The position numbers were made by a program, and so were the translations under genes. From Minisyncoccia bacterium (GTDB taxonomy: Bacteria > Patescibacteriota > Minisyncoccia > Phycocordibacterales > SBAW01): 64,000 bases of DNA. The notes under the pieces are model-generated. The model did not search any database, had not been told where the DNA came from, and was given only the letters and a program-made list of their open reading frames with translations. The stretch covers positions 58,059 to 122,058 of the forward strand of contig JBEKSG010000001.1 in the NCBI GenBank assembly GCA_049997855.1. Direction: 5' to 3'. This document shows, in pieces, positions 1,550-53,049 of the stretch (position 1 is its first letter; every line of letters starts with the position of its first letter).

Positions 1550-1648
1550 CGAGCACCGGCAAGCATGTTTTGAGTGATTTTTGTATGAATGTAGCCTAAA
1601 AATAACCCTCATTTTCCCACCAAAAACGCTCTAGGCGCCTTTTTCTTT

Positions 1649-1668
1649 TACAAATCTGTTGTAAAATA
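1649..1668 (+). promoter_or_regulatory. 20-nt element TACAAATCTGTTGTAAAATA containing a -10-like TAAAAT immediately abutting a start codon; exact second copy at 38985-39004
   Basis: Identical 20-mer at two loci 37 kb apart, each placing TAAAAT 6-7 nt upstream of an ATG, which implies leaderless transcripts. Confidence 0.4.
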
Positions 1669-2174: not shown

Positions 2175-2180
2175 CACTAC

Positions 2181-2660: not shown

Positions 2661-2704
2661 GCGTACACTATAACATTCGTATGTTTTTGCGGTAGACTAA
2701 CCAT

Positions 2705-3901: not shown

Positions 3902-3937
3902 TTGCAACTTATTTGCGTTTGTGATAAGGTAAAGGCA

Positions 3938-4369
3938 ATGAAGAAGGCCACGGTAGATTTAAAAGCGGCGCTTAAGGGAGCGGGGTTTAAAGCGACGCCT
4001 GGACGTTTACAGCTTTTGGAGCTTTTAGCTCACACCGATGAGCCTTTAAGCGTGCTCAAAATCCAAAAAAGGCTTGGTAAAAAGCTCAATGAAGTGACGC
4101 TATACCGCGCGCTCGAGGCTTTTACAGCAGCTGGTTTGGTACGCCGTGTCGACTTAGGCCACGACCACGCGCATTACGAGCTTGCACTCGGCCGTGCGCA
4201 TCACGACCATCTCGTGTGCACTAAATGCGGAGCGATAGAAGATATCGAAGGTTGTGCGCTTGTGCCGCTTCAAAAAAAGACACTCAAGCGGTCGCATTTT
4301 AAAAGCATTTACTCGCATAATTTGGAGTTTTTCGGCCTGTGCCGAGCATGCTCGAAGTACTATGAATAG
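3938..4369 (+). CDS. zur: Fur-family metalloregulator, likely zinc uptake regulator
   Basis: MKKATVDLKAALKGAGFKATPGRLQLLELL winged helix, HHDHLVCTKCG...E metal site; sits directly upstream of znuABC with ATGA overlap. Confidence 0.75.
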   Translation: MKKATVDLKAALKGAGFKATPGRLQLLELLAHTDEPLSVLKIQKRLGKKLNEVTLYRALEAFTAAGLVRRVDLGHDHAHYELALGRAHHDHLVCTKCGAIEDIEGCALVPLQKKTLKRSHFKSIYSHNLEFFGLCRACSKYYE

Positions 4370-5291
4370 AAACTGGCTTGTTGGAATCGTAGTCATTATT
4401 GTTCTCGTTACCGGCGGTTTTCTTATCTTTAGACGTGCCCCTGCGCCTAACGGCGGAGCGGCATCAAGTGGCGTTGTGCAAGTAGTTGCGGCGGAAAATT
4501 TTTGGGGCAGTATCGTATCGCAAATCGGCGGCGCGCACGTACAAGTTTTGAGTATCGTCTCAGACCCTAATGCCGACCCGCATGAGTACGAAAGCAATGC
4601 GAGCAACGCACGCGCGGTCTCTAATGCCGCTTATGTGATTGAAAACGGCGTCGGATACGACAGCTGGATGGACAAACTGTTATCCGCCGGTGGCAGCAAT
4701 CCCAACCGCAAAGTATTAAACGTGGGCCAGCTTGTCGGCAAACAGGAAGGCGACAATCCGCACCTCTGGTATAACCCTGTGTACGTCAACCAAGCCGCCG
4801 CGCAAATGGAGCAAGACTTAATCACAATTGACCCTTCCGACAAAGCGGATTTTGAGAAAAATTACCAAACATTGCAGTCCAACTTGGCTGAATACCAAAA
4901 CCGCATCGTTTCTATTAAGCAACAATATGCCGGCACCAACGTTGCCGCGACCGAAGATATTTTTGCTTATCTTGCCGCGGCAGCCGGGCTCAACCTCATC
5001 TCTCCTCCCGCATTCATTGAGGCAGTTGCCGAAGGCAATGACCCGCCTGCTCAAAGCGTCGTTGAGTTTGAAAATCAATTGAAAGCAAAAGAACCGGTAG
5101 TGCTTGTGTACAATGAACAAACAGTGACGCCTTTGACCGAGAACGTCAAAGCGCTCGCGGCGCAGGAGAATATTCCAGTCATCGGCGTTACCGAAACTAT
5201 CCAACCGCCGGATGCGACGTTCGAGGAATGGATGAACGCCGAGCTGATTGATCTGCAGAACGCTCTTAATGCAAACGTACTGGGACAATAA
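4362..5291 (+). CDS. znuA: Metal (zinc) ABC transporter substrate-binding protein, TroA/ZnuA family
   Basis: TM anchor then conserved SIVSDPNADPHEYE and TroA-like fold signature; operon context. Confidence 0.75.
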   Translation: MNRNWLVGIVVIIVLVTGGFLIFRRAPAPNGGAASSGVVQVVAAENFWGSIVSQIGGAHVQVLSIVSDPNADPHEYESNASNARAVSNAAYVIENGVGYDSWMDKLLSAGGSNPNRKVLNVGQLVGKQEGDNPHLWYNPVYVNQAAAQMEQDLITIDPSDKADFEKNYQTLQSNLAEYQNRIVSIKQQYAGTNVAATEDIFAYLAAAAGLNLISPPAFIEAVAEGNDPPAQSVVEFENQLKAKEPVVLVYNEQTVTPLTENVKALAAQENIPVIGVTETIQPPDATFEEWMNAELIDLQNALNANVLGQ

Positions 5292-5295
5292 CAAC

Positions 5296-6081
5296 ATGAA
5301 CGAACCAGTTATTACCGCAAAAAATTTAGCGGGAGGATATGCGAGTGTCCTCATATGGAAGAATGCAAGCTTCTCAATACATAAAGGTGAGTTTGTTGCG
5401 GTACTGGGGCCCAACGGCGCCGGCAAGACGACGCTGTTTCGACTTTTGCTTGGATTGGTTCAGCCTTTACAAGGCACTCTTTCCATTTTGGGTAGAAGTC
5501 CTACGCGCGGCAATCCGCGCATCGGCTACGTGCCCCAGCGTCATCACATAGACAGCGAAACAACCATCGAGGCTCTTGAGTTGGTGCGCCTCGGGGTTGA
5601 TGGCAATCATTGGGGTGTTGAAATCTCTGCCGATGCAAAAACGGAGGCTCTTGCCGCCCTTAAAACTGTTGGGGCGGAGGCATTAGCGCATCGACCGCTA
5701 GGCGCCCTCTCCGGCGGCGAGCTCCAGCGCATTTTCCTCGCTCAAGCATTAGTCGGCAAACCAGACCTGCTGTTGCTCGATGAGCCGCTTGCCAATCTCG
5801 ATATCCGCAGAGAGTCAAATTTTGTGCAGCTTATCAACAACGTCGTGCGCTCGCAAGGCGTTACGGTTTTGCTTATTGCACACAACATTAATCCGCTGTT
5901 CCCAGTGCTCGACCGCGTGATGTATGTGGCAAACGGCCATATCGCTACGGGCAAGCCGCATGAAGTGCTGACTTCCGAATCATTAAGCAAGCTGTACGAT
6001 ACACAGGTCGAAGTACTGCGAGACTCGCGCGGCAGGATAGCTATCGTCGGTACCGAAGAACCCGCGCACCACCATGAATAA
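5296..6081 (+). CDS. znuC: Metal ABC transporter ATP-binding protein
   Basis: Walker A GPNGAGKTT, signature LSGGELQR, Walker B LLLLDEP. Confidence 0.85.
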   Translation: MNEPVITAKNLAGGYASVLIWKNASFSIHKGEFVAVLGPNGAGKTTLFRLLLGLVQPLQGTLSILGRSPTRGNPRIGYVPQRHHIDSETTIEALELVRLGVDGNHWGVEISADAKTEALAALKTVGAEALAHRPLGALSGGELQRIFLAQALVGKPDLLLLDEPLANLDIRRESNFVQLINNVVRSQGVTVLLIAHNINPLFPVLDRVMYVANGHIATGKPHEVLTSESLSKLYDTQVEVLRDSRGRIAIVGTEEPAHHHE

Positions 6082-6919
6082 CGTAACGTTCAGCTTCAAC
6101 ATCATAGGCGATCTGCAAAACATGCTGCAGTACGATTTCATGTTGCATGCGTTTGAGGCGGGAACAATAGTTGCTATTGTCGCCGGTGTTGTCGGCTACT
6201 TCGTCGTATTGCGGCGCTCGTCGTTTGCGGCGCACGCACTTTCACACATCGGTTTTGCCGGAGCGGCAGGAGCCGTGCTTTTTGGCTTCAGTCCGCTTCT
6301 GGGGCTTTTGGCATTTACCACCGGAGGCGGCGTTGTTATGGCGACACTCGGTCGCAAAGCGGCAAGCCGCGATGTACAAATCGGGACAGTGTTGGCTTTT
6401 ATGCTCGGTCTCGGTGTTTTGTTTATCAGCCTGTACTCCGGCTACGCCACCGAAGCGTATTCGCTTCTTTTTGGCGAGATTTTGGGTATCAGCAGTACGG
6501 ATGTGCTGGTAACGCTTATCGCGGGGCTTATATTGCTTGCGGCAGTAGCCGTTTTGTATCGGCCACTGTTATTTACTTCGCTCGATGAAGATGTCGCTGA
6601 AGCAAAAGGGGTATCAATTTTCTGGCTTGGCGTTGCATTCATGATTTTGGTTGCAGTTGCAACCTCTATTGCGGTGCAGGTGGTGGGCGTACTGCTCATA
6701 TTTGCGCTCATGGTCACGCCCGCCGCTATAGCAGAGCGGATAGCTCGCCGCCCCGCTCAAGGCATAGCGATATCGATAGGCGTCGCCTTGCTTGCGACAT
6801 GGTTTGGGCTTTTTATTTCGTTTTATCTACCCTATCCGGTAAGCTTCTTTATCACGACTATAACATTTGCTATGTATCTCATAGTGCGTTTTTACAGAGG
6901 TTATTTTTACAGAGGTTAA
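6074..6919 (+). CDS. znuB: Metal ABC transporter permease (ABC-3 family)
   Basis: Polytopic membrane protein overlapping znuC stop. C-terminal RFYRGYFYRG is encoded by a 14-nt tandem duplication, and the stop lies inside the REP element. Confidence 0.75.
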   Translation: MNNVTFSFNIIGDLQNMLQYDFMLHAFEAGTIVAIVAGVVGYFVVLRRSSFAAHALSHIGFAGAAGAVLFGFSPLLGLLAFTTGGGVVMATLGRKAASRDVQIGTVLAFMLGLGVLFISLYSGYATEAYSLLFGEILGISSTDVLVTLIAGLILLAAVAVLYRPLLFTSLDEDVAEAKGVSIFWLGVAFMILVAVATSIAVQVVGVLLIFALMVTPAAIAERIARRPAQGIAISIGVALLATWFGLFISFYLPYPVSFFITTITFAMYLIVRFYRGYFYRG

Positions 6920-39485: not shown

Positions 39486-40115
39486 TTATTCTTCCAAATT
39501 CCTTACAGAATCGGCGTTGAGCGTCGGCTCCTGCGCGACGGTGTCGAGCATGCCGGTAATAGTCACATAATCTCCTATAAGTACATTCTGAGGAGAAATC
39601 TCTTGGCCGTCACGGTTGAGGAAACGTGTTCCGAAATTGTGCGTTTCGTAACTGCTTGCATCAGTGAGTACTATCCACCTAAAATCCGTCGAGCCCCATG
39701 CCGCACTGACGGTTATAGTCGTTCCATTTACCGCCACCACTCGTGCACTACGCAGGAGAGTGAGCCCGTTGTTGGCAATATGCATCTCACTGGGAAAGAG
39801 CGGGACGCCTGTGGCGACTGCGGGCGCAGACATCGCGGTACCTTGAGCCGCGGCTTTGTGCGGTGGAAGCGAAAAAAGGAAAACAGAGAACGAAAAAACA
39901 AAAAAGAAAATAGCGCCTACAAACAGAAAAGTTCCGAAGAGTTTGACATACGACATATCCACCATCGCCTTAAACCAGCGGCGGATTACTCCACTCCTCG
40001 CTCGGGGAAAGTCAAAGGAGTGCGGATCAAAGGTCTGCACCTCCGCAAAAAAGGCCGTAGGGGGAGCGTATAAACGCATGTTCTTAACTATAATTATATC
40101 CCGTGAAGCCATCAT
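39486..40115 (-). CDS. Hypothetical membrane-anchored protein
   Basis: ORF track; one TM helix. Confidence 0.3.
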   Translation of the reverse strand: MMASRDIIIVKNMRLYAPPTAFFAEVQTFDPHSFDFPRARSGVIRRWFKAMVDMSYVKLFGTFLFVGAIFFFVFSFSVFLFSLPPHKAAAQGTAMSAPAVATGVPLFPSEMHIANNGLTLLRSARVVAVNGTTITVSAAWGSTDFRWIVLTDASSYETHNFGTRFLNRDGQEISPQNVLIGDYVTITGMLDTVAQEPTLNADSVRNLEE

Positions 40116-40381
40116 GAATCACCGATGAATCCATTTGATTCATTTGGACTTCATGAGAAAGAACTTGGCGTGAAAGTTGGATATAAGATTTCTGTTACTA
40201 AACTCGCCACTGCCACAAAGAAGCCTGGCATAGAAGGGAAACGAGCGCGTCTTGCGGAGACTATCAAGAGCTTTCATCAAATTCATTGGGTAACTATATC
40301 AAAGATGAAAAAACACCCAAGGAAAAAATTCCTTGGGTGTTGATCTGCTCGGATGATCGCTCCTGAAACCTGCTTATTTAT

Positions 40382-40690
40382 TCAGTACGGATCATGCTCG
40401 TCGCGCACTTCCTGCACGACATAATATACGAGTGCAAAGAGGCTTATCATGATTCCGCCGAGCGCATACGAAATTGCGCTCAATGACAGATGCCACGGAT
40501 GTATGACCCACGTGTCCTGGTGATACCAAAAATGATCTCCGGCAACAGACCACAACGCAATGCCCGCGATGATTACTCCCACCATGCATGCGAAGTATAC
40601 GACTGCCCGGACCCACCACGACCAATTTTCATGCATCAGCTTCAACGGCACCGTGACGGGCCATCCAGCTACGAAGAAGATAATTTTCAC
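40382..40690 (-). CDS. Hypothetical small membrane protein (3 TM)
   Basis: ORF track. Confidence 0.3.
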   Translation of the reverse strand: MKIIFFVAGWPVTVPLKLMHENWSWWVRAVVYFACMVGVIIAGIALWSVAGDHFWYHQDTWVIHPWHLSLSAISYALGGIMISLFALVYYVVQEVRDEHDPY

Positions 40691-40794
40691 GGTTTTTCCC
40701 CCTGTGTTTTGTGCTAACTGTGCTACAGTATACAGATATATTTTAGAAAGTCAAGTATTAGTAAAGGGATGCCCAACACAGAGGCTGGGCAAGT

Positions 40795-41034
40795 TCATCG
40801 CGGCAGACCTTTATTTGCTTTGAAGATTCCGCCGCCGGAATGTAGACCGAACGAGGTGACAAGGCCGGGTATTGCTTGCGGCATGTTCTTATTACGCCAA
40901 CAAGCGTCGCAGTAAGCAGTCCCTTTTCTGACTGATTTTCCGCAGCGTACTCCTGTGGCGTAGTCTAATCCGTTACATGTTGCCTCATTGGTTTTTTCGG
41001 TAGGCTGCTTTTGAGCACTGATCGATATTGCCAT
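40795..41034 (-). CDS. Small Cys-rich zinc-ribbon-like protein
   Basis: CNGLDYATGVRCGKSVRKGTAYCDACW contains 4 Cys in a C..C...C..C arrangement. Confidence 0.35.
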   Translation of the reverse strand: MAISISAQKQPTEKTNEATCNGLDYATGVRCGKSVRKGTAYCDACWRNKNMPQAIPGLVTSFGLHSGGGIFKANKGLPR

Positions 41035-41215
41035 AGTACATCCTCCTACCCAAACTATATCATCGTTTCAGACCACCAGCTCAATGTATTAAAAAAGGGC
41101 CGCCCAAGAGGGGCGGCTTGAAACAACAGATCTTCCTGTTCGTGTGTTCGCGAACAACATGCTCCCATTGCTTGAGGCATGCCTCAAGCACGGCGGCGTC
41201 TTCGTGAAGAATCAT

Positions 41216-41869
41216 TCACATCTTCCAGCGTTCGGCGCGCTGGATCTTCAGCGCCCAGCAGACCTCCCGAACATTTTCACAGAGTCTCGTCTGTTGGTCG
41301 ACGATCTTATGAGTCGCCCGTTCATACAGAATATTGACGTAGTCCGGTTTGAATCTCAAAGCCCGGCCGATCGCAACGACATCCAGATGTAGCACGTCGC
41401 ACCCGATGAGGATGACTGCCTGCTGGGCAGCGGCGCATTTGGTGCTCTTCAGGGCGCCATCAACGATATGTTGCCATGACATACCGAATACTTGCGCGAC
41501 GCAGTCTCTTACGGCATAGATCGTCAGCTCAGCGTCACTGCTGCTTTTCATCTTCGGTGAGAATAGGCGCCAAATCTCCGTCGCACACGCCGACAGTTTC
41601 TTGTCGGCGGCGAGATGCGCCCTAGCATCCGCAATTTCCTTCCCCGAGCAGAACATGCTGTCTTGCAGAAAGCCATCCGCATCTTGCACAAACTTATGCG
41701 TACTCCCCAAGGCGAGCACCAATACTCGGGCATTCCAGCAATCCGACGAAGGATCGTCGACGGGTTCTTTGATCAGCTCGGGCGGAACTCCCATCCTACT
41801 CGAGACGATACCGGCTAAAGCCGCCAGTGTTTCCTCACGGCTTCTGTAGCCAACCTGCACATGTGCCAT
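41216..41869 (-). CDS. Hypothetical protein (start at MAHVQVGY)
   Basis: ORF track; no recognisable motif. Confidence 0.3.
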   Translation of the reverse strand: MAHVQVGYRSREETLAALAGIVSSRMGVPPELIKEPVDDPSSDCWNARVLVLALGSTHKFVQDADGFLQDSMFCSGKEIADARAHLAADKKLSACATEIWRLFSPKMKSSSDAELTIYAVRDCVAQVFGMSWQHIVDGALKSTKCAAAQQAVILIGCDVLHLDVVAIGRALRFKPDYVNILYERATHKIVDQQTRLCENVREVCWALKIQRAERWKM

Positions 41870-42093
41870 ATCTTTCTTTCTCCTGAGAGTTATGTATGGC
41901 CTTAAAGATCTCAAAACAGAACCGCACAATACTAAACCATACTATAGCACCCGGTACAATCGTACAATTATATCTTATACCACAAAAATCAATACTTGCA
42001 AATAGATTACAGCTGCATGAATCACCTACAAAGAGGAAGACCTTATTTGAGAGATGATACCGCTCCGCTCGAATAGTACAGGATTTAGTAAGC

Positions 42094-42125
42094 CAATTTA
42101 TCCCTGCGGCAGAAGCCGCAGGGAG
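42094..42125 (+). terminator. Hairpin CCCTGCGG-CAGAAG-CCGCAGGG followed by AGTTTTTGG
   Basis: 8-bp perfect stem; also may terminate the minus-strand membrane-protein operon. Confidence 0.4.
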
Positions 42126-42201
42126 TTTTTGGCTAAATGCTTAAACTGGTAACTTAACGATCCGAGACCCCCGCCGAGAATAAGGTCGCTCTCGCCGCAC
42201 C

Positions 42202-42360
42202 CTACTTTGAGGTAGGATTCAATGCGCCCCAGAATCCGACAACCGCAATGACTACGCCCAGAACTACGAGCGTCCACGTGAGCGTCATGCCCGTGAGACC
42301 TAAGAACGCCGCCACAATCACACAAAGCCCGAGCACCCCATTTGTCCAATCTTGCCACAT
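42202..42360 (-). CDS. Small 2-TM membrane protein (52 aa, start MWQDWTNG)
   Basis: ORF track 42202..42480, trimmed to the internal Met preceding the hydrophobic core. Confidence 0.3.
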   Translation of the reverse strand: MWQDWTNGVLGLCVIVAAFLGLTGMTLTWTLVVLGVVIAVVGFWGALNPTSK

Positions 42361-42542
42361 AGTATTTAGTATTAGTTGTTTTTGATAAAATGATGAAGCA
42401 AATCTCGGATGTGCCCCATGCGGTAAGTATATATCGGTTTTGGTGCTCTTTTGGAGCGAAGTGGAATAACGGGCTCCCACTGGCTGACAAGTTCAGAACC
42501 GCAGATTGGATACAGTTTGAGCGCGACCTACAGTTCAGTGGC

Positions 42543-43058
42543 CTACTTGACCTGCCGTTGTTTAGGCAGTTTTCTCTGACTTGAACGGACCAATACGTAA
42601 ATAGATACTGCCACGAGCGAGATGCCGACCGGCGGAAGCACATACAAAACGAATGCTGCGAAGTTGTAGAGGATAGTCGCACTCGTGTTCAGGACAGTAA
42701 ATAGGGTTGGCACGATGTACTGATACGACAAGAACATCAAGAAGAGCCAGACGACCGCCTTGATAAAGTTGTACAGCTCCCATGAGCCGAAACCCTTTAC
42801 GACGACGTCGTGCAACACTTTGTAAAAACGTGCTTCGTAGAGTAGGAAGCCAAGCGTGCAAAAAGTAAAAGCGCTGTAAAACGCTCGGTAGAAAAACTCG
42901 GGCTCCGACAGCGGCTTCACCTCTACCCACTGGAACTTCACACGAAGCGCGAAGCGCCAAAGTAGCAGCACCAAAAGCAAAACAGTGTACGGCACTGCCG
43001 AGCTAAAAACCTCTTTTGTTTGAGCAACGAGAACGGTTCGATACCACGGCTTTTTCAT
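42543..43058 (-). CDS. Hypothetical 4-TM membrane protein (start MKKPWYRT)
   Basis: ORF track trimmed. Confidence 0.4.
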   Translation of the reverse strand: MKKPWYRTVLVAQTKEVFSSAVPYTVLLLVLLLWRFALRVKFQWVEVKPLSEPEFFYRAFYSAFTFCTLGFLLYEARFYKVLHDVVVKGFGSWELYNFIKAVVWLFLMFLSYQYIVPTLFTVLNTSATILYNFAAFVLYVLPPVGISLVAVSIYVLVRSSQRKLPKQRQVK

Positions 43059-43075
43059 GTTGGATAAGTTCAGAA

Positions 43076-43315
43076 CTACTTCGGCCAAGCTAGGTAAATC
43101 TGGATACCCGACGCCATCAGCGAAAGCAGGATTGCCACTATCGCGATGCCTAACGACCAACGTGCATAGCGTTTCGACGAAGCTGAGTTTTCTACTGCCA
43201 GTCGTCGCTGTAGCTCGTGCGCCGCAAGAGCGCCGTACCTCGGGTCCCAGTTGTCCATTCTCTGGAACAGCTCTTCTTCGGTGTAGCTCGGCAACGGTTT
43301 ATCAAAGTTAGCCAT
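43076..43315 (-). CDS. Small tail-anchored membrane protein (cytoplasmic N-domain, C-terminal TM)
   Basis: ORF track. Confidence 0.4.
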   Translation of the reverse strand: MANFDKPLPSYTEEELFQRMDNWDPRYGALAAHELQRRLAVENSASSKRYARWSLGIAIVAILLSLMASGIQIYLAWPK

Positions 43316-43321
43316 ACAGGT

Positions 43322-44062
43322 TTACTCTTTTCTTGCGCCGTCTGCCTGCTCTTTTTCCAAGACAGCTCTTTCAGCCGAAAGCTCTTTATCGGTAAAGCGT
43401 AAATCGTTTTTGTACCAGATGCGGCTTCCTTTGCCGAACCCATAAAATCTCTTCATCTTGAGTGTGTCGGTTTTATTCGCATCGTTCAAGAGCAAACGAA
43501 CCTTCACGCGAAGGTCGGTTAGGTCCTCGATGACTTTCGGATACTGGTCGTCTATGGTGCCAAGAGCTTCATTGAAAAAACTGATGACGTTCTCTGCGAG
43601 TTTACCGCCCCCGCTCATAATGGTCCTTTTGAAGGCCTGATACTCGTTGTCTATCATCCGCAAGTGATGGTCAAAACCCTTGAGTTTTCTGATGATGACA
43701 TACACCTCGTTTACCAACTCCACGTTGTAGCTCTTGAAAAAGTCCATCGAAGGAAAGTCGTAAAACTGGAAGTTCTTTGGGAAAATGGCTCCCGGCGTTT
43801 TCAAAACATCCAAAAACTCGTTGGTTGTCCGTGCATCGTAGGCGGTTATGTTCAACCACTCAAGTAAGTAAATCTCTATCTGGCGTAGAAACTCTTTGTG
43901 CTCCTTGTTTGCGGCATAGATTTTTTCGTATCGGATTATCAGGTAAGGCACGATGACTGAAACCAACAAGGCGACGCTGCTTATCAAGACCGGCAAAACG
44001 TCTTTCCAAAAGTCGAACGACCCTCCGGTTCCTATTTGGTGGAAGTAGTGATGGGGATACAT
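43322..44062 (-). CDS. Hypothetical protein with N-terminal TM helix and about 200-aa cytoplasmic domain
   Basis: ORF track; no recognisable motif. Confidence 0.4.
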   Translation of the reverse strand: MYPHHYFHQIGTGGSFDFWKDVLPVLISSVALLVSVIVPYLIIRYEKIYAANKEHKEFLRQIEIYLLEWLNITAYDARTTNEFLDVLKTPGAIFPKNFQFYDFPSMDFFKSYNVELVNEVYVIIRKLKGFDHHLRMIDNEYQAFKRTIMSGGGKLAENVISFFNEALGTIDDQYPKVIEDLTDLRVKVRLLLNDANKTDTLKMKRFYGFGKGSRIWYKNDLRFTDKELSAERAVLEKEQADGARKE

Positions 44063-44074
44063 TCGCGTTCAGTA

Positions 44075-44326
44075 TTAGATGCGACCACGAAGAGCACTCA
44101 CGAGAGCAATCAGGTTTTGCAGCTTTCCTTCCGCGTTATCTTCGTTGAAGTTCTTGATAATGCCTTGCACCCTCGTAAGCAATGCGACGGGGTCCGCAGG
44201 CCGCGGTTCTTTTTTTGGTTTTGTGCTTTTTTCTTTTGCTGCTCTTGGCGGCGCTGCTACCATCCCCGCCTCGGTAAGAAGGGCTTGAACTTTCTTGAGC
44301 GTTTCGAGTGCTTTTTCGGCGTCCAT
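44075..44326 (-). CDS. Hypothetical small protein, Lys/Pro-rich middle
   Basis: ORF track. Confidence 0.3.
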   Translation of the reverse strand: MDAEKALETLKKVQALLTEAGMVAAPPRAAKEKSTKPKKEPRPADPVALLTRVQGIIKNFNEDNAEGKLQNLIALVSALRGRI

Positions 44327-44362
44327 TGTCCTGTAGTGTAATGTAAACTAAAGTAAAGGGCA

Positions 44363-45490
44363 ATGGAACCTCTACAGATACTCGAACGCTACTTCAACTC
44401 CTTTATCGGGTCCGAAGACCCGAAGCAGTTTTTTATGGGCCTCAAGGACTATCTCGACTATGGCGACGCGGTGCCAGAGTTTGACCTCATTACGACGCAG
44501 GTTTCAGCCATGCCAAAGGAGCTGATGGAACGGTACGAAAAACAACATAACGAAGCACTCTCCAAGATAAAAGAGGCGCACAAGAAAATAGCCAAGTACG
44601 TCGCCAAAAACAAAGTTGAGATACCAGTCGTTCTGAACGCTCTCAAACAGTACGATAGTTTCGAACAAAAACGCTCGACTAGCAGCTGGCCTCTTGCGTA
44701 CACCTTGCACGATGAGTTGCATGACGCAATCGAGTTCCTCTACCGGACCCCCGAGCACAAAGAGTTCGCCGAGAAGTTCATTGAGTTTTCCGACCCCACA
44801 AAGGCGCACGCGCGGCACTACCTACCCATCAAAGAGCTGGACGACTTTCTCGAAACGAAAAAGGAGTTTGAACGCCAGTATGAAAATGAGTTATGGGGTG
44901 CACAGCAGCACTTGTACGAGCTTTGTAAAATCGTTCGCGAAGGACATGCGATGGGCAAAGAAGTTATTGCTCGAGCACAGAGGAAAGAGCCCGGCGCAGT
45001 GTTCGACTGGATGAACTTCAGCGTGATTATGAGCGAGTGGATGAAAATCGAAGAAGGCCGCCCCGAGCGCGACCCTGTGTTCTTCAAACCGAAAGAAGTA
45101 CGGCCAAAGGCGCAGCGCTTTCACTTGTATGTTTTGTCCCGCTTCGCAGCTGCGCACGCAGCTCTTGCCGAGGTAAAGCAAGAGAAGCCGCTCTCCTTCG
45201 ATGAGAACGAGGCAGTTTTGTGGGTCAAGAACAAACCCTTTCCTATCCGTCGGGTATCGGACCAGTACGACTTGCTCCGGGTCATTTTTGCTGACCCAGC
45301 AGAGGTCGGTAAAGAGTGGTTTTTTGATGAGATAGCAGAGAAAGTAGACCCAGCACGCTCAAACGAACGGCTCAAGAAGTACTACAACGCCGCGTATCAG
45401 ATAAGTAAGAAACTCGCCGAAAAGGGACTTCCGGGCTTCTTTATTACGAAGAGACACTCTGCACGTATCGGTTCGACCTACTTGTCTTAG
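44363..45490 (+). CDS. Hypothetical cytoplasmic protein (375 aa)
   Basis: ORF track; no recognisable motif. Confidence 0.4.
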   Translation: MEPLQILERYFNSFIGSEDPKQFFMGLKDYLDYGDAVPEFDLITTQVSAMPKELMERYEKQHNEALSKIKEAHKKIAKYVAKNKVEIPVVLNALKQYDSFEQKRSTSSWPLAYTLHDELHDAIEFLYRTPEHKEFAEKFIEFSDPTKAHARHYLPIKELDDFLETKKEFERQYENELWGAQQHLYELCKIVREGHAMGKEVIARAQRKEPGAVFDWMNFSVIMSEWMKIEEGRPERDPVFFKPKEVRPKAQRFHLYVLSRFAAAHAALAEVKQEKPLSFDENEAVLWVKNKPFPIRRVSDQYDLLRVIFADPAEVGKEWFFDEIAEKVDPARSNERLKKYYNAAYQISKKLAEKGLPGFFITKRHSARIGSTYLS

Positions 45491-45714
45491 ATGTCTTAGA
45501 TTTTATCTAGGCCACACCAAGATACCCATTGTCTACGCTTAGTGCGTGGACGCTCAAAAAGGACAACCCGATAAACAGACCGAGGATACCGAGCTGATGC
45601 AGCGGTTTTTCGGCGACTTCGAAGCACGACGCAACATCGTCGGACTTTACGACCTGCTCTACAAAATCGACCGGCGCGTCAATCCAGACCTTTACCAGCA
45701 TAAAGAACCCGACC

Positions 45715-46836
45715 ATGGTTGATACCGTCATACTCACGCTGCCGCTCGAAAAAGCGCTCTTCCTCGACTTGAAGGCAAGCGGCGTTGAGCCATGGGACCT
45801 TCAAGCGCGAACCAAGGCCTACGAGAAGTTCGTCCGCAATCCTTCGCGCCGCGATGCCGAGAGCGGGCTGTACTTCCCGCGTCTTACCGGCTACAAGCGC
45901 AAGAACGGCAAGCTCACATGGCAAAAGAGCATGAAGATAGAGTTTTCCGCTCCGAAACTCATCTACAAAAACAATCTCGAAGAGCTGGCCGATAGCGACT
46001 TCGAAAATGTCGTGGACGCGCTCATGGACCGGATGCAGCAGATGGGCGTCGTCATCAAACGGCATGACTTGTGCAATGCCGAGGTGCGCTCGGTTCACTA
46101 CTCCAAAAACATCGAGCTAAAAGACGGTTACACGGCGCAGTACGTTATCGGCGAACTCGGCAAGATAAACCTCAACAAACGCTTCGACCTCACGCGTGCG
46201 CGTTTTATGAACGATGGGCAGAGCTTGTACCTCTACACCATCGCGCACTCGTTCGTTTTGTATGACAAGGTCGCCGACCTCGGCAAAGACGCGAAGCGAG
46301 CAATCGACAGAGAGCAGACACCGCAGCAGTTGAACTTGTTCAAACAGCTCGACAAGAAAAAAGAGATACTGCGCCTCGAGGTACGCTTGAGCCAGAAGCA
46401 GAAGATGAACTCACTCTTCAAGAAACTCGGGTTCGCAGAAAATCCTACCTTCCGCGACGTGTTCTCAAAAGCAAAGAGCAAGAAGGTCCTCGGGCACTAC
46501 TGGGAAACGATGATAGCCGGACACAGCGTCTCGCTCTTCGCACCATCGCTCACGCCGAAAGACCTGCTCAAACAGGTGCTCATCGCACGCAAGGGAGCGA
46601 AAGGCAAGACGGCAATCTACCTTGCGGGGTTGCTGCTGTTCGCTCGGGACGGCAACGGCCAACGCGAGCTGCGTTCGATACTCTGCAAAAAGAACGACGA
46701 CCGGACGTGGTACCGCATTGCGGCAGACGTGAAGAGCATCGCGACCGACTTGAGAAAAGTGCATCCGCGCGACTGGTACGACCAAGTTCAAAAGGCACTC
46801 ACGAGTTATCAGCGGTATCGCATGGACAGCAGTTAG
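45715..46836 (+). CDS. Hypothetical protein, possibly Rep_trans-like rolling-circle replication initiator
   Basis: Weak resemblance to RepC-type motifs (VLYDKVADLGKDAKR vs RIYNKKQERK; LRLEVRLSQKQ vs WRVEIELKRD). Not verified. Confidence 0.3.
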   Translation: MVDTVILTLPLEKALFLDLKASGVEPWDLQARTKAYEKFVRNPSRRDAESGLYFPRLTGYKRKNGKLTWQKSMKIEFSAPKLIYKNNLEELADSDFENVVDALMDRMQQMGVVIKRHDLCNAEVRSVHYSKNIELKDGYTAQYVIGELGKINLNKRFDLTRARFMNDGQSLYLYTIAHSFVLYDKVADLGKDAKRAIDREQTPQQLNLFKQLDKKKEILRLEVRLSQKQKMNSLFKKLGFAENPTFRDVFSKAKSKKVLGHYWETMIAGHSVSLFAPSLTPKDLLKQVLIARKGAKGKTAIYLAGLLLFARDGNGQRELRSILCKKNDDRTWYRIAADVKSIATDLRKVHPRDWYDQVQKALTSYQRYRMDSS

Positions 46837-47027
46837 AGGTCGTGCGTGTTCGAAACTATCAAATAAAAAATAACAACATGAAAACAGCAGTACAGAAGTT
46901 CGTTGAAGAGATGACAAAGGCCTTTGATGCCTACTACCGACAACGCCTTTCCGAGAGCGTAAAGCGCGGCCTCCGAGCCAAGAAGTTATCAACTCGGGCA
47001 AAGTTGCCCTGTAAACCAATGTAAAGT

Positions 47028-47216
47028 ATGATTATAGGCATGCAGCAGAGGGAGTTCTACAACCCGCAGGAACTGGCCGACAAGCTAGTCGTAAACGTCA
47101 TGACTATTTATCGCTACATCAAAGCGAAGAAACTCAAGGCGCACAAAATCGGAAAAGAGTTTCGCATCGAAAAGTCCGAGTTTGATGCGTTTCTGAAACG
47201 CACCAGTACGAAATAA
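47028..47216 (+). CDS. Excisionase/Xis-family helix-turn-helix DNA-binding protein
   Basis: PQELADKLVVNVMTIYRYIKAKKLKAHKIGKEFRI HTH pattern. Confidence 0.55.
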   Translation: MIIGMQQREFYNPQELADKLVVNVMTIYRYIKAKKLKAHKIGKEFRIEKSEFDAFLKRTSTK

Positions 47217-47220
47217 AACC

Positions 47221-49026
47221 ATGAACGAAAAGGAACTCATACAGCAAAGAGACAATCAGATACTCCGGCTCCAAAAGGAAGTCGAGAAACTGAAGAAGTC
47301 CATAAAAACACAACGGTATGGCATCGTCTGGGCCGATGTACCCGAGGCCTTCGAGGACGATGTAGAGAACAAGCTACCCGTACTCGAAGAGGTGCCAAAA
47401 CTCGCAATAAAGAGCAAGGACGACAAGCCGACGCACATACTCATCGAAGGCGACAACTACCACGCGCTCACGTGCCTCAACTACACGCACAAGGGCAAAG
47501 TGGACGTGATTTACATAGACCCGCCCTACAACACGGGCTCGGACGGCTTCCGCTACAGGGACAAGCGCATCCTCGATAAGTATCCTGACGGTACAGACGT
47601 GCCACAGGACCATCCGTTCAGACATAGCTACTGGTTGTCGTTTATGAAAAAACGCCTCGAACTCGCAAAGGACTTGCTCAAAGATGACGGCGTTATTTTC
47701 ATCAGCATTGACATAAATGAGATGGCCCAACTCAAGCTACTCGCCGATGAGGTCTTTGAAAACAACCTGATTAGCTTGATTACAGTAAAGGTAAAGGACC
47801 CTGCTGGTGTTGGCCAACAGAGCTTTATCTTCGATGTAGCCGAGTACGTCTTGATGTATGCAAAAAACACAGCGACGTTCAAAGCCAAGCACCAAGACCT
47901 TCCACTGGATTACGAAGAGTTGAATGAACAGTACGGGAGCTATAACAAAGTAGTGCTTGATTTTGGGAAGCCGAAGCTCGTAAAAGAGATTACGCGGCAA
48001 AATGTTGGTGCGATAAAAATCTATCAATGTCAGGACGCAGAAATTGGAAGGACGACGAACTTCACTTTCAAGGAGTACATCAAGAAGCGCGACACCATTT
48101 TTGCTGACTACAATCCAAGCGGCGGGATGATACTCGCCATCAGAGACCAGATACCGAAGAAGGGTCTGGCTTACATAGAATACGTCCCCACGAAAGGTAG
48201 AAATGCAGGGCAGATGACAAAGGGCTACTTTTTGAACGGCAGAATACTCGCGTGGCTCTCTACTGTCGCCAAGTACGAGAACGGTGTTTTGCGTAAACAG
48301 ACAAAAATGAGTAACGTCTGGAATGTTGCCAACGCCTCTCTTCATTTGGAAGGCAATGTTGATTTTACAAACGGAAAGAAACCCTTGGAGCTAGTAGAAA
48401 AGCTCATAGGAATGTTCAACATCCCGAACGGTCTGGTGCTCGACTTCTTCGCTGGGTCAGGCACGACAGGAGAAGCTGTTATGTCCCTGAACGCGACAGA
48501 TGCCGGAAAGCGACAGTTCATTTTGATTACGAATAACGACGAAATTACGAATGGAAAGACACAAAAGATAATGTCGGACGTTTGCTATCCGCGCATAAAA
48601 AACAGTATCAAGGGTTACAGAAGTAGGAAGGGGCTGGGCAACTCAATCAAGTTCTACAAGACCAGTTTTGTCGGTAAACACAACATTCTCGATGCGGATG
48701 ACAAAGACAGGGTACAACTCGCACATCATGCAGGAGAGATGTTGAGCATCGCAGAAAATACGCTCGACGCGGTCGAGAAAACCGACCACTGGCAGGTCTT
48801 CGAGAGCCGCGAGCGCTTCACAGCCGTTTATTTCCGCGAGGAGTACGACAAACTGGATGCCTTCATCGCGATGGTCAAGAAGCTCAAGAAACCTGTAACG
48901 GTCTACGTCTTCAGCTGGGAAGACGACCCGTACATCGCGGACTTCGAGGACCACGGCAACATCACAGTCAAGACGATACCGGAGCCGATAGTTGAGATTT
49001 ACAAGCAAATCTACAACCTTGTATGA
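47221..49026 (+). CDS. mod: Type III restriction-modification N6-adenine DNA methyltransferase (Mod)
   Basis: Motif IV IDPPYNT, motif I LVLDFFAGSGTTGEA; followed by res with ATGA overlap. Confidence 0.8.
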   Translation: MNEKELIQQRDNQILRLQKEVEKLKKSIKTQRYGIVWADVPEAFEDDVENKLPVLEEVPKLAIKSKDDKPTHILIEGDNYHALTCLNYTHKGKVDVIYIDPPYNTGSDGFRYRDKRILDKYPDGTDVPQDHPFRHSYWLSFMKKRLELAKDLLKDDGVIFISIDINEMAQLKLLADEVFENNLISLITVKVKDPAGVGQQSFIFDVAEYVLMYAKNTATFKAKHQDLPLDYEELNEQYGSYNKVVLDFGKPKLVKEITRQNVGAIKIYQCQDAEIGRTTNFTFKEYIKKRDTIFADYNPSGGMILAIRDQIPKKGLAYIEYVPTKGRNAGQMTKGYFLNGRILAWLSTVAKYENGVLRKQTKMSNVWNVANASLHLEGNVDFTNGKKPLELVEKLIGMFNIPNGLVLDFFAGSGTTGEAVMSLNATDAGKRQFILITNNDEITNGKTQKIMSDVCYPRIKNSIKGYRSRKGLGNSIKFYKTSFVGKHNILDADDKDRVQLAHHAGEMLSIAENTLDAVEKTDHWQVFESRERFTAVYFREEYDKLDAFIAMVKKLKKPVTVYVFSWEDDPYIADFEDHGNITVKTIPEPIVEIYKQIYNLV

Positions 49027-51398
49027 ACCTCAACCCGCTCAAGTTCCAGAGAGATGGCGTAGATACACTCACAACGCGCTTCCTTGCACTATGGAAGAAG
49101 AAAGGCCGCCAGTTGCCACTAGTGCTCAAAGCCCCGACGGGTAGCGGCAAGACCTACGTTGCCGCGCTCTTCGTGCGTGGTTTGAACCACCTGCCACAGT
49201 GGGATGAGGATAAGGCGTTCATCTGGATTACTTTTAGCGACGACCTTGCAATGCAGAGCAGGGACAAGTTCCGCGCGTACTTCGAGAACACTCTCGAGAA
49301 TGGATTGCTCACGGTCCAAGACATCAACCGCGGCAAACTCAATCCGAATGACATCCTTTTCTTGAACTGGCAGAAGGTTGTGTCAGTCGCCGCAGAAAAC
49401 CGCACCTTGCGCCGTCCTGATGACGAAGAGATGCGCAAAGAAAGCGGCAAGTATTTTGAGGACGTGATTGACGCGACGAAGCGAGACGCCCGCGAGATTA
49501 TCCTCATCATAGACGAAGCACACACGCACGTTTCGACCGTACTTGCGCAGAAGATAATTGACTACATAGACCCGAAGGTCGTGCTCCACGTTTCTGCAAC
49601 GCCCGACCCGAGCATCATTGCTCAAGCGGCCGAGAACGACAGCTTCATAAAGCTCGACCGCGATGCAGTCGTGGCACAAGGGCTCATCAAAGAGAGTATC
49701 GTATCGCAGACGACCGATGACCTGAAAGGAATGGGCCGCAAAGACCTCGACGAAGTGCTACTTGAGCTTGGAATGGAAAAACGCGAAGAGATTGTGAGGG
49801 AGTATAAGAAGTTAGGCAAGGACGTGAACCCTCTGATGCTCATACAGCTTCCGAATGACGACAAGGACCTCATTGACGCTGGCGAACGCACAAAAGAAGA
49901 AGTTGTGATGTCGTATCTGCTCAAGCGTGGTATGAAGGAGCACAAGATAGGCCGTTGGTTCGACGGCAAGAAGGAAAATATGACGGGCATTACGGAAAAC
50001 GACAGCGATGTTGATTTTATGCTCTTCAAGCAAGCAGCGGGCACGGGCTGGGACTGTCCACGCGCCTCGGTCTTGGTCATGTTCCGCGAAGTTCGCTCCG
50101 ATAAGTTCTACACGCAGACAGTCGGTCGCATCCTGCGCATGCCGGAGCCGCAGTTGAAGGATAACTACAAGGACAGCCCGCTTCTGCGTCGCGGTTATCT
50201 CTACACGAACTACAAGCGCGAGCAGGTAAAGGTGCCCGACGAAGATGAGAAGAACAAAGCACAAACGCAAGCTGCGTTCATCAAAGATGGTATCAAGAAC
50301 ATTACGCTTCAGTCTGACTACATCTCGCGCGTGGATTATGGCGACATACCGAGGTCGTGGACGTTTCAAGAGAACTTCCGCAACTCGATGAATGTCTACT
50401 TCAAAATCGGCAAAGATGACATTCTCGGGAAGGCAGAGAAGAAGCTCAAAGACGCGCGTCTCGACCTAGATGATACTCTCTTGAACTCTGTCGTCGCGAA
50501 CGCGCAGTTCGAGGACTTCGACCAGCTGTCGCTTGAGTTCGCGAAGCAAGGCACAGACGTGTCGCTCGAGATGTCGGTAAGTGATGTCGAAAAAACCTTC
50601 AACTACCTTTGCTATCAGCTGCTCAAAGAGCAACAGGATGAGCAAGCAAAATACTCCAACGTTGCACGTTCGTGGAGCGTCCTCAAGTCGGCTATTCGTA
50701 TCTGGTTCAAGGGCGTGCTTGGCGACGACAGCACCTACTACTACCGCGTGTTCGTGAAGGACATACAGAAAGGCCCCGAGAGCGTTCTACGCCCTGCGAT
50801 TACGAAAGCCCTTCGCGACTTCAAGCCGATAGCGCGTAAGCTCGTCGAGGAAAAGAAGAAGGAAGCCGAGACGAAGGAGGCCCCGACCTTCTCAATCCAA
50901 AGGGAGTACACCTACACCGACGACTACGAGGCAGTGCCACAAAAACTCTGCGCCCTCGACAAGTTCTTTGTGCTTCGCACCTACAGCGGCAAGGCAAACG
51001 AGACGAAGTTCGCATCCTATCTCGATAAGAAGGGCGGCAAAATCGCGTGGTGGTTCAAGAACGGCAATCAGGGCAAAGACTACTTTGCAGTACGCTACAT
51101 AAACTCATCAACGAAAGGAGAAGAGCTTTTCTACCCCGATTGGATAATCCTCTTCAAGGACGGGACTATCGGCATTTTCGATACAAAGAAAGGTCGCACG
51201 CTCACTGACCTCGAGACGGCAGATAAGGCCGCCGCGCTCCAGAAGAAGCTCAAGGAGTTCGGCAAGAAGTACGTCGGGGGCATCGTCCAAGAAGAAGCGG
51301 GTGTCTGGTATTACAATGATAGACCAAACTACAGCTTCAAGGATGGGCAGTCGGTCAACGATAGTAAGGACTGGAAGCCGTTTGAAAGTCTATTTTAG
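49023..51398 (+). CDS. res: Type III restriction endonuclease subunit (Res; SF2 helicase plus C-terminal PD-(D/E)xK nuclease)
   Basis: Walker A KAPTGSGKT, DEAH box IIDEAHTHV, motif VI QTVGRILR, C-terminal YPDWIIL...IGIFDTKKG nuclease motif. Confidence 0.8.
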   Translation: MNLNPLKFQRDGVDTLTTRFLALWKKKGRQLPLVLKAPTGSGKTYVAALFVRGLNHLPQWDEDKAFIWITFSDDLAMQSRDKFRAYFENTLENGLLTVQDINRGKLNPNDILFLNWQKVVSVAAENRTLRRPDDEEMRKESGKYFEDVIDATKRDAREIILIIDEAHTHVSTVLAQKIIDYIDPKVVLHVSATPDPSIIAQAAENDSFIKLDRDAVVAQGLIKESIVSQTTDDLKGMGRKDLDEVLLELGMEKREEIVREYKKLGKDVNPLMLIQLPNDDKDLIDAGERTKEEVVMSYLLKRGMKEHKIGRWFDGKKENMTGITENDSDVDFMLFKQAAGTGWDCPRASVLVMFREVRSDKFYTQTVGRILRMPEPQLKDNYKDSPLLRRGYLYTNYKREQVKVPDEDEKNKAQTQAAFIKDGIKNITLQSDYISRVDYGDIPRSWTFQENFRNSMNVYFKIGKDDILGKAEKKLKDARLDLDDTLLNSVVANAQFEDFDQLSLEFAKQGTDVSLEMSVSDVEKTFNYLCYQLLKEQQDEQAKYSNVARSWSVLKSAIRIWFKGVLGDDSTYYYRVFVKDIQKGPESVLRPAITKALRDFKPIARKLVEEKKKEAETKEAPTFSIQREYTYTDDYEAVPQKLCALDKFFVLRTYSGKANETKFASYLDKKGGKIAWWFKNGNQGKDYFAVRYINSSTKGEELFYPDWIILFKDGTIGIFDTKKGRTLTDLETADKAAALQKKLKEFGKKYVGGIVQEEAGVWYYNDRPNYSFKDGQSVNDSKDWKPFESLF

Positions 51399-51400
51399 CT

Positions 51401-52927
51401 ATGAAAGCAGTTGAGGTATCACGAGTATCGACCGAAGAACAAAAGGATGCGGGCAACTCGCTTCCGGCTCAAAGCGAACGCATAAAAAACTACTGCAAGC
51501 GCAAGGACTTCGACATAGCTGCGTCGTTCAGCTTCGATGAGAGCGCCTACAAGACCAAACGCGATGAGTTCGACAAACTGCTCACATTCGTTGAAGAAGC
51601 CATCAAAAAAGAGAAGCTGGCCGTTTGTTTCGATAAAGTGGACCGGCTTTCGCGTAGCGTTTTTGACAAGCGTGTTGCTCGACTGTACGAACTTGCCATT
51701 GCCGACAAGATAGAGCTGCACTTCGTCTCGGACGGGCAGGTCATAAACGCTCAGATGTCGGCTGTCGAGAAGTTCCAGTTCGGCATGAGCTTGGGCCTTG
51801 CAAAGTACTACTCGGACGCTATCAGCGACAACGTAAAGCGAGCGTTCGAGCAGAAGCGCCGGAAGGGCGAATGGACCGGCCCTGCGCCCTTGGGCTATCT
51901 CAACGTGGCTCTCGACGCAGAAAAGCGGCTTCGTAAGGACATCATTGTCGACCCCGAACGAGCACACCTCATCGAGCGCCTTTTCCTGCTGTACGCGACC
52001 GGCAACTACTCAATCACGACAGTGCATGAAGAGATAACACGCCTCGGGCTTCGTGGCCGCGAAGGAAACGTGTTGGCCCGCAGCAACATCGAGTTCACTC
52101 TCAAGAACCCTTTCTATTACGGTTTCGCACGACCACGCAAAGGTGCTCCGTATCCACACAAGTACAAGACGATAATCTCGCGTGAGCTTTTCGACCGCGT
52201 ACAGTCGGTTTTTTACAGCCGCCACAAAGCAACTTCGAAGCCGCTGTCCGACCTCTTTATCTTCAAAGGGCTTTTGCACTGCGACCACTGCGGCTGCGTC
52301 ATGTCGCCAGAGATAAAGAAGGGCCGTTTTATCTACTACTCCTGCACGAACGCCAAAAGGACCTGCAAACGCGTGTATGTGCGCGAGGAAGAGCTTCTGA
52401 AGCCCGTACAGGACGTTTTCAAGGCCTTTGAGAAGATACCGGCCGACGTTGAGAAGCGGCTTTTGAAGGAACTGCGCGACCTCAACGAAAGCGAGGTTGA
52501 GTACAACAAGAAAGAGCTGGTCCGTATCCGAGCCGAGTACGACCGCGTACAGAACCTCATCGACGGCTACATGGACATGCTCGCCGACAAGAGTATTACC
52601 AAGGATGACTATGACAAAAAACTGGAAAAGCTAAAAGACCGGCAGTACCGGTTGAACATCGAAGCGGAAGAACATACGAAAGCCGACCACGACTACAAAC
52701 TGACCATCTCCCACGTGTTTTCTATGTCGCGCCGCATGGGCGCCATCTTCGAGAGTTCGGAAGTGCCCGAGAAAAGGGCTATTTTGAACTTCTTACTTCA
52801 GAACCCGAAGGTATCAGACAAAAAGCTAGTGTTTACAATGGCAAAACCGTTTGATGCCGTACTCGAACTAGCTAACTGTCCAACTGGGCTCCGCGACCAG
52901 GACTCGAACCTGGAACCAACTCCTTAA
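51401..52927 (+). CDS. Large serine recombinase (integrase)
   Basis: N-terminal resolvase domain with catalytic RVSTEEQ, recombinase domain, zinc ribbon HCDHCGC...YYSCTN, coiled-coil; the 3' end overlaps tRNA-Asn. Confidence 0.8.
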   Translation: MKAVEVSRVSTEEQKDAGNSLPAQSERIKNYCKRKDFDIAASFSFDESAYKTKRDEFDKLLTFVEEAIKKEKLAVCFDKVDRLSRSVFDKRVARLYELAIADKIELHFVSDGQVINAQMSAVEKFQFGMSLGLAKYYSDAISDNVKRAFEQKRRKGEWTGPAPLGYLNVALDAEKRLRKDIIVDPERAHLIERLFLLYATGNYSITTVHEEITRLGLRGREGNVLARSNIEFTLKNPFYYGFARPRKGAPYPHKYKTIISRELFDRVQSVFYSRHKATSKPLSDLFIFKGLLHCDHCGCVMSPEIKKGRFIYYSCTNAKRTCKRVYVREEELLKPVQDVFKAFEKIPADVEKRLLKELRDLNESEVEYNKKELVRIRAEYDRVQNLIDGYMDMLADKSITKDDYDKKLEKLKDRQYRLNIEAEEHTKADHDYKLTISHVFSMSRRMGAIFESSEVPEKRAILNFLLQNPKVSDKKLVFTMAKPFDAVLELANCPTGLRDQDSNLEPTP

Positions 52928-52960
52928 CAGGGAGCTGCTCTACCATTGAGCTATCGCGGA
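52889..52960 (-). tRNA. tRNA-Asn (anticodon GUU)
   Basis: Manual fold: acceptor TCCGCGA/TCGCGGA, D-arm GCTC-AATGGTA-GAGC, anticodon arm GCTCC-CTGTTAA-GGAGT (GTT), T-arm CCAGG-TTCGAGT-CCTGG, discriminator G; CCA not encoded. Confidence 0.75.
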
Positions 52961-53049
52961 ATGTAAACAAACCTTAATACTATACATCTTTTTTCTTAAA
53001 AATCTAACCCTTTATTATATTATCTAGTCCCCTGGGGTATAATAAAAAT

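Follow-up and report, generated by a model that had tools for sequence, protein, structure and literature searches.

Small membrane-protein genes at the cargo end of a predicted tRNA-Asn integrative element in a Minisyncoccia bacterium: probably separately swapped accessory genes and not a five-gene system

In the 64,000-nucleotide (nt) stretch of contig JBEKSG010000001.1 analysed here (the window), which belongs to a Minisyncoccia (Patescibacteria, candidate phyla radiation or CPR) metagenome-assembled genome, five short minus-strand genes at 42202-44326, here called E, D, C, B and A, had been proposed to form one operon of membrane effectors acting as a candidate abortive-infection, membrane-disrupting or exclusion module. 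We found that these five open reading frames (ORFs) comprise at least four independent evolutionary units: E; D, with or without C; B; and A. The explanation that we favour, with moderate confidence, is that the region holds separately swapped accessory cargo of a ~10.4-kb integrative element at a tRNA-Asn gene, and not a five-gene system. Our confidence is high for the anatomy of the element and its cargo end, and low to moderate for the functions that may be assigned to the cargo from its sequence. The genes and the sequence motifs among them are as follows (aa, amino acids; TM, transmembrane; att, attachment site; L numbers denote loci fetched for comparison).

44075-44326, minus strand: gene E, first gene of the cargo slot, supported as an ORF and by gene calling; 83 aa, Lys/Pro-rich, soluble
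43322-44062, minus strand: gene D; 246 aa, one N-terminal TM segment (~residues 18-45) and an all-helical C-terminal domain
43076-43315, minus strand: gene C, the least supported gene; 79 aa, tail-anchored (TM residues 50-78)
43063-43076, minus strand: upstream 14-mer GTTCTGAACTTATC, immediately 5' of B, where the L012 homology block starts
42543-43058, minus strand: gene B; 171 aa, four-helix membrane protein of a conserved Patescibacteria family
42471-42558, minus strand: terminal block, a putative attP-derived arm holding a second 14-mer (42486-42499) and the core GGAGCCC (42471-42477)
42202-42360, minus strand: gene A, beyond the element end; 52 aa, hydrophobic, resembling an SPW repeat

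The distribution of the genes in other genomes speaks for separate units. D turns up in five other contexts (L003, L005, L009, L010 and L011), none of which has B, C or E; more than 50 B loci lack C, D and E, and E has a homologue (75% identical, 80 aa, same position) only in L075, the closest relative. C has no homologue in any of the fetched loci, and A lies outside the element. A tblastn search with the five proteins against 78 fetched loci recovered no conserved block. The genes are scattered and non-syntenic in relatives, an outcome named with the original prediction as one that would refute it, and the idea of a five-gene operon or cassette is unsupported.

The integrative element and its variable cargo end

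Comparison with related loci places the element, as we reconstruct it, at 42471-52892, at the extreme 3' end of the tRNA-Asn gene. On the left, DNA homology (blastn) of the window to L012, L072, L073, L074 and L075 breaks off at 42465-42473; on the right it continues through the tRNA. No long direct repeat that could serve as an att site was found, which is expected for a serine recombinase, and the boundaries were for this reason taken from the comparative breakpoints. Since A and everything to its left lie beyond the breakpoint, they are placed outside the element; the genes had been thought to lie inside an island, which is correct for B, C, D and E and not for A. The terminal block occupies the last 80-90 nt and closes with ...GTTCTGAACTTGTC AGCCAGTG GGAGCCC. 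It is 76-88% conserved in L072, L073, L074 and L075 and falls inside a longer 79% match to L012, its terminal motif was looked for in six elements and in each of them follows the final gene of the slot, and the 7-nt core GGAGCCC is repeated at the tRNA-Asn end (52886-52892). The window holds no second tRNA-Asn 3' fragment, and the 9.4-kb contigs L005 and L006 show no terminal overlap that would indicate circularity.

The rest of the element is made up of the following features; it includes a Type III restriction-modification (R-M) system, in agreement with the earlier placement of the genes in a mobile island beside such a system.

44363-45490, plus strand: core gene F, 375 aa
45546-45722, plus strand: core gene G, 58 aa
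45715-46836, plus strand: core gene H, 373 aa, with faint Rep_trans similarity (E = 0.065)
47028-47216, plus strand: small HTH_17 gene
47221-49026, plus strand: Mod gene of the Type III R-M system
49023-51398, plus strand: Res gene of the Type III R-M system
51401-52927, plus strand: large serine recombinase, 508 aa (PF00239 Resolvase, PF07508 Recombinase, PF13408 Zn_ribbon_recom)
52885-52961, minus strand: tRNA-Asn(GTT), the integration target, its 3' part overlapped on the other strand by the recombinase ORF

The three recombinase domains lie in one protein at the element end, as in elements of the large-serine-recombinase kind. H, probably a replication initiator, has more than 1068 homologues, of which every named one comes from Patescibacteria, and the number of these homologues therefore points to a large family of small elements, of which eight, from more than 1000 H homologues, were inspected for their cargo.

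The interval 42471-44341 is, by these comparisons, the variable cargo end of the element. The slot that is divergent from F differs in each relative inspected (percentages are identities to the window proteins):

Window: E-D-C-B
L075 (H 98%, F 86%): an E homologue (75%), an unrelated 235-aa protein with two TM segments, and a 55-aa tail-anchored protein
L012 (H 87%, F 75%, B 87%): proteins of 79 aa and 186 aa, the latter weakly matching aspartyl proteases, and then B
L072, L073, L074 (H 85%, 82%, 71%): a SocA_Panacea antitoxin gene and a partner of ~145 aa
L005 (H 49%): D alone
L076 (H 71%): a DUF3800 gene

The DNA breakpoints coincide with module edges, at 44075 (the E stop codon), 43076 (the 14-mer before B), 44342 and 42553. 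Homology to L075 begins exactly at the E stop codon at 44075 and picks up again at 42553, and homology to L012 covers 42473-43076, that is B with its preceding 14-mer, and then resumes from 44342. Relatives without B retain its final codons (..CTCAAGTAG), from which we conclude that B was deleted in them. The motif GTTCTGAACTTRTC has two direct copies in the window (43063-43076 and 42486-42499), against 0.03 expected. This pair brackets B both in the window and in L012, and in L073, L074 and L075 two copies stand ~100 nt apart with no gene between them. The copies could be binding sites of the recombinase or of an accessory protein; the motif also holds the palindrome GTTCNGAAC.

A backbone of large serine recombinase, HTH_17 protein, H, G and F carries two exchangeable slots, the first occupied by an R-M system and the second, divergent from F, closing at the att-derived terminal block. 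The mechanism would be a swapping of cassettes by recombination between conserved flanks, which are F or E at one end and B or the terminal block at the other. Every cargo gene would act singly, to the benefit of the element or of the host, and the likeliest roles would be element maintenance, anti-phage protection and exclusion at the membrane. Such roles are suggested by the Panacea toxin-antitoxin (TA) pairs that sister elements hold in the same slot, and a protective one by the company of D with defence-type genes and by the tie of B to R-M and defence arrays. The cargo is thus probably protective or addictive; an accessory defence or exclusion function, as originally put forward, is reasonable given the slot relatives and the linkage of B, and does not extend to a five-gene system.

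Other differences among relatives touch the first slot. The R-M system is swapped between close relatives, with Mod only 28-31% identical between the window (R-M genes at 47221-51398) and L012, L072 and L073. L075 lacks R-M altogether and has an N-terminal remnant of Mod joined to the recombinase gene from ~aa 145.

As for the genes themselves, all five ORFs are present where they had been predicted, with the same five products in two independent public gene calls of the contig, and each ranks first in its own frame under a codon-usage model trained on 18 confident genes from the window; the score of C is the lowest (0.002, host genes 0.14-0.32). Hydropathy agrees with the topologies first sketched. 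A is nearly all hydrophobic and compatible with two TM segments, B has ~4 TM segments, in agreement with its AlphaFold2 (AF2) model, C has a single C-terminal and D a single N-terminal TM segment, and E has none and is K/R-rich. The gaps described as tight are so between E and D (12 nt), D and C (6 nt) and C and B (17 nt), and not between B and A, which are 182 nt apart, or 62 nt only if an upstream GTG were used, reading through the element junction. The start of E lies 36 nt from the divergent core gene F.

Nor did these proteins resemble known families. B, C, D and E have no significant match in Pfam, PHROGs, PADLOC or NCBIfam, in keeping with the absence of a recognisable catalytic motif already noted for them. 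PADLOC-DB 2.0 gave no match at E <= 0.1 for any of A to E, PDB sequence and profile searches with B, C, D, E, F and H gave nothing significant, and the Panacea domain (PF13274) and other TA family signatures are absent from E, D, C and B in Pfam, PADLOC and NCBIfam. A reaches Pfam SPW (PF03779) below threshold only (E = 5e-6, 27.3 bits, gathering score 31.5, one repeat covered). A likeness of C to the 55-aa protein of L075, seen by eye, was unsupported by BLASTP, and D is unrelated to the 235-aa protein of L075.

The hairpin reported as a terminator beyond A is real, GC-rich and with a 10-bp stem (42101-42124). Its T-run, however, sits on the plus strand only (GTTTTTGG), the minus-strand transcript continuing with AUAAAUUGG, and for this reason it would be a poor intrinsic terminator for the minus-strand genes. 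A sub-threshold Rfam match to the Pseudomonas small RNA P26 on the minus strand at 42100-42161 (28.2 bits, gathering 36, E = 0.004) coincides with this hairpin and is probably just the stem-loop. In the B-A gap, a conserved ORF on the opposite strand (42390-42584, plus) was rejected for its poor coding score; its conservation is explained by the att arm that lies there.

Genes D and B outside the window

D belongs to a near-orphan family, with nine homologues among 5.8e9 proteins and two representatives in an exhaustive profile search of 1.84e9 proteins. Across the family the mean column identity is 70%, the TM helix included. The contexts in which it stands without B, C or E are diverse. It is alone in the slot of the sister element L005; in L011 it comes right after a KAP NTPase gene within a serine-recombinase element at tRNA-His; in L003 it is beside DUF3800 and reverse transcriptase (RVT_1) genes; in L010 it follows a PIN gene, near Fic and rve genes; and in L009 it adjoins tRNA-Ser. 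A Type III R-M element is also among its contexts. The AF2 model of D is all-helical and of low confidence (predicted local distance difference test, pLDDT, 56), and searches by sequence and by fold were without a significant match. On this evidence D is most likely a stand-alone membrane-tethered protective or exclusion factor, and the positive-inside rule would put its soluble domain in the cytoplasm. Its identification as Kiwa KwaA was rejected, because the E values in the PDB profile search (0.35-0.49) were judged to be chance, PADLOC gave no KwaA/KwaB match and there is no DUF4868-like neighbour. A GDSL lipase fusion is present in one of the two profile-search representatives; in protein P0108 the D-family part spans residues 1-216 and the GDSL/SGNH lipase part has a Pfam E of 8e-14, and the fusion could be genuine or an assembly artefact.

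B has a far wider distribution, with at least 98 homologues of 55-87% identity in Minisyncoccia, Pacebacteria and Curtissbacteria, and was found in 55 metagenome loci, among them chromosomal contigs of up to 957 kb. When the neighbouring ORFs of these loci were grouped by clustering, the upstream neighbour was co-directional with B in 47 of 48 loci, mostly -4 to +9 nt away, B being the last gene of an R-M, STAND, KAP or TPR-PIN array. Upstream sequence of at least 3 kb is available for 25 loci, and in 16 of these co-directional R-M genes (Type I with YgjP, Type III or DpnII) lie upstream of B. The gene just before B varies, and includes TPR-PIN, nSTAND3, NACHT, KAP NTPase, SF1 helicase with Ser/Thr kinase, UvrD, AAA_15, HNH+DUF4209, DUF2254 and HsdS. 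Between close B loci, DNA identity of 80-90% halts after ygjP and returns 0-9 nt before the ATG of B, which makes B the conserved downstream flank of a cassette-swap hotspot. We read B, then, as most likely an autonomous membrane protein of the island backbone and not a partner of C or D, and we take its conserved sequence to double as a recombination flank.

The AF2 model of B is confident (pLDDT 85), yet a fold search matched only generic long helices, and Pfam, NCBIfam and PDB gave no family or sequence match; the structure predictions suggested for D and B thus yielded no fold match for either. Scans of IMG/VR with B, D and H, and tblastn searches of phage and plasmid collections, were also without a match, so a virus or plasmid origin is unsupported. 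In many loci small proteins are encoded directly downstream of B, each highly conserved across loci and with no Pfam match (L013 8491-8667, L029 6583-6882, L028 10653-10976 and others). Two kinds, of 58 and 99 aa, are acidic and share the strand of B, and a third, of 106 aa, lies on the other strand.

Alternative explanations

Several points weigh against the region being separately swapped cargo. The shared 7-nt core is short, no excision was seen and there is no empty site among the retrieved loci, and the eight elements sampled stand for more than 1000 H homologues. The roles proposed for B to E rest on sequence and context, and no related family or fold could be detected for any of the four. 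A mean column identity of 70% in D is untypical of arms-race proteins, and B has many invariant polar and aromatic residues; because both are strongly conserved, they could serve a physiological membrane function. Finally, the window and L075 both have E, then an N-anchored protein of ~240 aa and then a small tail-anchored protein, and such an arrangement (E-X-C) could be a functional three-gene unit.

This last possibility, in which a small soluble E would act with a swappable N-anchored X and a small tail-anchored C, seems to us unlikely. The two loci share gene order and kinds of anchor, with E 75% identical between them, but the comparison is based on one pair of close relatives, C and the 55-aa protein have no detectable similarity, D and the 235-aa protein are unrelated, and D is found in L003, L005, L009, L010 and L011 with neither E nor C. 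Just as doubtful is that B is a shared downstream membrane effector or adaptor for any upstream gene, which would make C/D and B a two-part system here. It would account for the co-directional upstream gene in 47 of 48 loci, often overlapping B by 4 nt although the genes are unrelated, and recalls promiscuous partner domains such as Panacea (PMC8832971). Among the upstream neighbours, however, are systems that are complete by themselves and even HsdS, the slot can be filled by D or by the Panacea pairs with B absent, B was lost from close relatives that kept the remainder, and the ATGA overlap is partly a by-product of the Met-Lys start of B.

A broader and rather speculative reading, which we hold to be slightly less probable still, would have B define a new family, spread through the Patescibacteria, as the fixed downstream part of a platform for the exchange of immune-gene cassettes. 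B would be either a promiscuous membrane partner or effector for many unrelated upstream defence proteins or the anchor of a site-specific, integron-like capture system, the GTTCTGAACTTRTC copies on both sides of B would be the recombination sites in the serine-recombinase elements, and D would be a new single-gene membrane-anchored defence or exclusion protein on the same platforms. It is improbable, in our view, that B, D or both have an ordinary physiological role in the membrane, for example as a small channel or a transporter subunit, and merely hitch-hike on islands. That role would suit the polar residues that are invariant in the TM helices of B, as well as the highly conserved TM helix of D. 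Against it, both are rare and patchy (nine clusters for D and ~100 for B among 5.8e9 proteins), occur almost only in mobile or defence contexts and match no transporter family; the housekeeping transporter raised as an alternative at the outset was likewise not found, with no Pfam or NCBIfam match and both families rare and confined to islands.

It is very improbable that the five genes, or E-D-C-B, act together at the membrane as a single defence or abortive-infection system. E to B are indeed co-directional and tightly spaced, in a mobile element beside a Type III R-M system, and in related elements this slot holds TA modules. This sits poorly with D alone in five contexts and B alone in more than 50 loci, with E common only to L075, where D-C-B is replaced, with A outside the element and with the lack of any PADLOC match. 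Least probable of all, and close to negligible, is that the membrane proteins are envelope or transfer parts of a plasmid-like or pleomorphic-virus-like element, a view that could draw on the small size of the element, its Rep-like protein (faint Rep_trans), its several membrane proteins and the lack of recognised capsid or conjugation genes, but B, C, D and E all lack conservation across the element family, and there is no match in IMG/VR, phage or plasmid collections and no PHROG match.

Known systems and neighbouring sequences

Patescibacteria have tiny genomes, and to our knowledge few immune systems have been recognised in them and their mobile elements have barely been described. The locus reveals a large family of small serine-recombinase elements at tRNA 3' ends that trade R-M, TA and unknown genes in two slots, and it brings out, in B and D, two unannotated membrane-protein families whose distribution is almost wholly tied to islands. 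Since B marks the exact downstream edge of a swap hotspot, it can serve as a landmark for mining new Patescibacteria defence genes, and it is a candidate for experimental testing. The most interesting by-products of the analysis are B as an invariant hotspot edge and the serine-recombinase elements that target tRNA genes.

The kind of object, the cargo slot of a small integrative island, is already known, and its proteins are unannotated. Comparable objects are the integrase-bearing mobile defence islands surveyed in E. coli (PMC10121019), the P2/P4 cargo hotspots of satellites and prophages (Rousset et al. 2022, as cited in PMC10121019) and pipolins (PMC11551731). As in these, we see a small element at a tRNA gene in which backbone genes flank slots that swap R-M, TA and unknown genes. 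Unlike them, the host is a Patescibacterium, the recombinase is a large serine and not a tyrosine enzyme, H, G and F are uncharacterised, and the cargo E, D, C and B matches no known defence family. The Panacea pairs of L072-L074, named for the Panacea (PanA) toxin-antitoxin domain (described in PMC8832971), occupy the same slot as the window cargo and are likewise small accessory modules of mobile elements, in their case of two genes, but E, D, C and B lack Panacea and any TA signature.

Accessory defence genes lie inside Type I R-M loci or are appended to them, as prrC in the EcoprrI locus. Most B loci are similar, with a variable defence-type gene right after hsdMSR-ygjP and then B. We know of no constant membrane protein closing the array in EcoprrI-type loci, and in the window B does not adjoin the R-M genes. 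Prophages and other elements also encode membrane-anchored superinfection-exclusion proteins of the Sie/Ltp type. D is like these in being a single, independently mobile, membrane-anchored gene next to an att site of an integrated element, and differs in that no sequence or fold similarity was found.

Serine-recombinase elements were seen at the extreme 3' ends of tRNA genes in three cases, Asn in the window, Asn in L005 and His in L011. In each the recombinase ORF enters the tRNA by 15-43 nt on the opposite strand (window 51401-52961, L005 67-1644, L011 4189-5745), and because the ORF crosses the junction into the tRNA, the C-terminus of the recombinase would be altered on integration. A 2014 survey did not know serine recombinases to target tRNA genes (PMC4383910). 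Integrase genes that span attP are exemplified by Mx8 IntP and SSV (cited in PMC4383910), and the window resembles them in having a recombinase ORF that extends over the junction into the tRNA; those enzymes are tyrosine integrases, whereas the window enzyme is a serine recombinase. H, for its part, is the marker of a family of small integrative elements in Patescibacteria that is large and as yet undescribed.

Further observations concern the sequences next to these elements. At 440-900 of L075, another, diverged serine recombinase gene (66% identity to aa 397-497) meets the left end of the element with its 3' end. The sequence across this junction, P arm-GAAGCCC-P' arm, resembles a complete attP and suggests tandem elements at one tRNA. 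Left of the element in the window, 39486-42360 holds only small unannotated ORFs (A and others of 217, 79, 102, 72 and 209 aa), several of them for membrane proteins. This stretch is not common to the left flanks of L072 and L073, the 209-aa protein alone having a relative (33% identity) near the same locus in L073, and it may represent one more variable region or what is left of another element. In L072, just beyond the element end (1619-6408), there are genes for a 497-aa protein, an AAA/ClpB-like ATPase and a TraG/TrwB-like coupling protein, which may belong to another mobile element accreted at the same tRNA locus.

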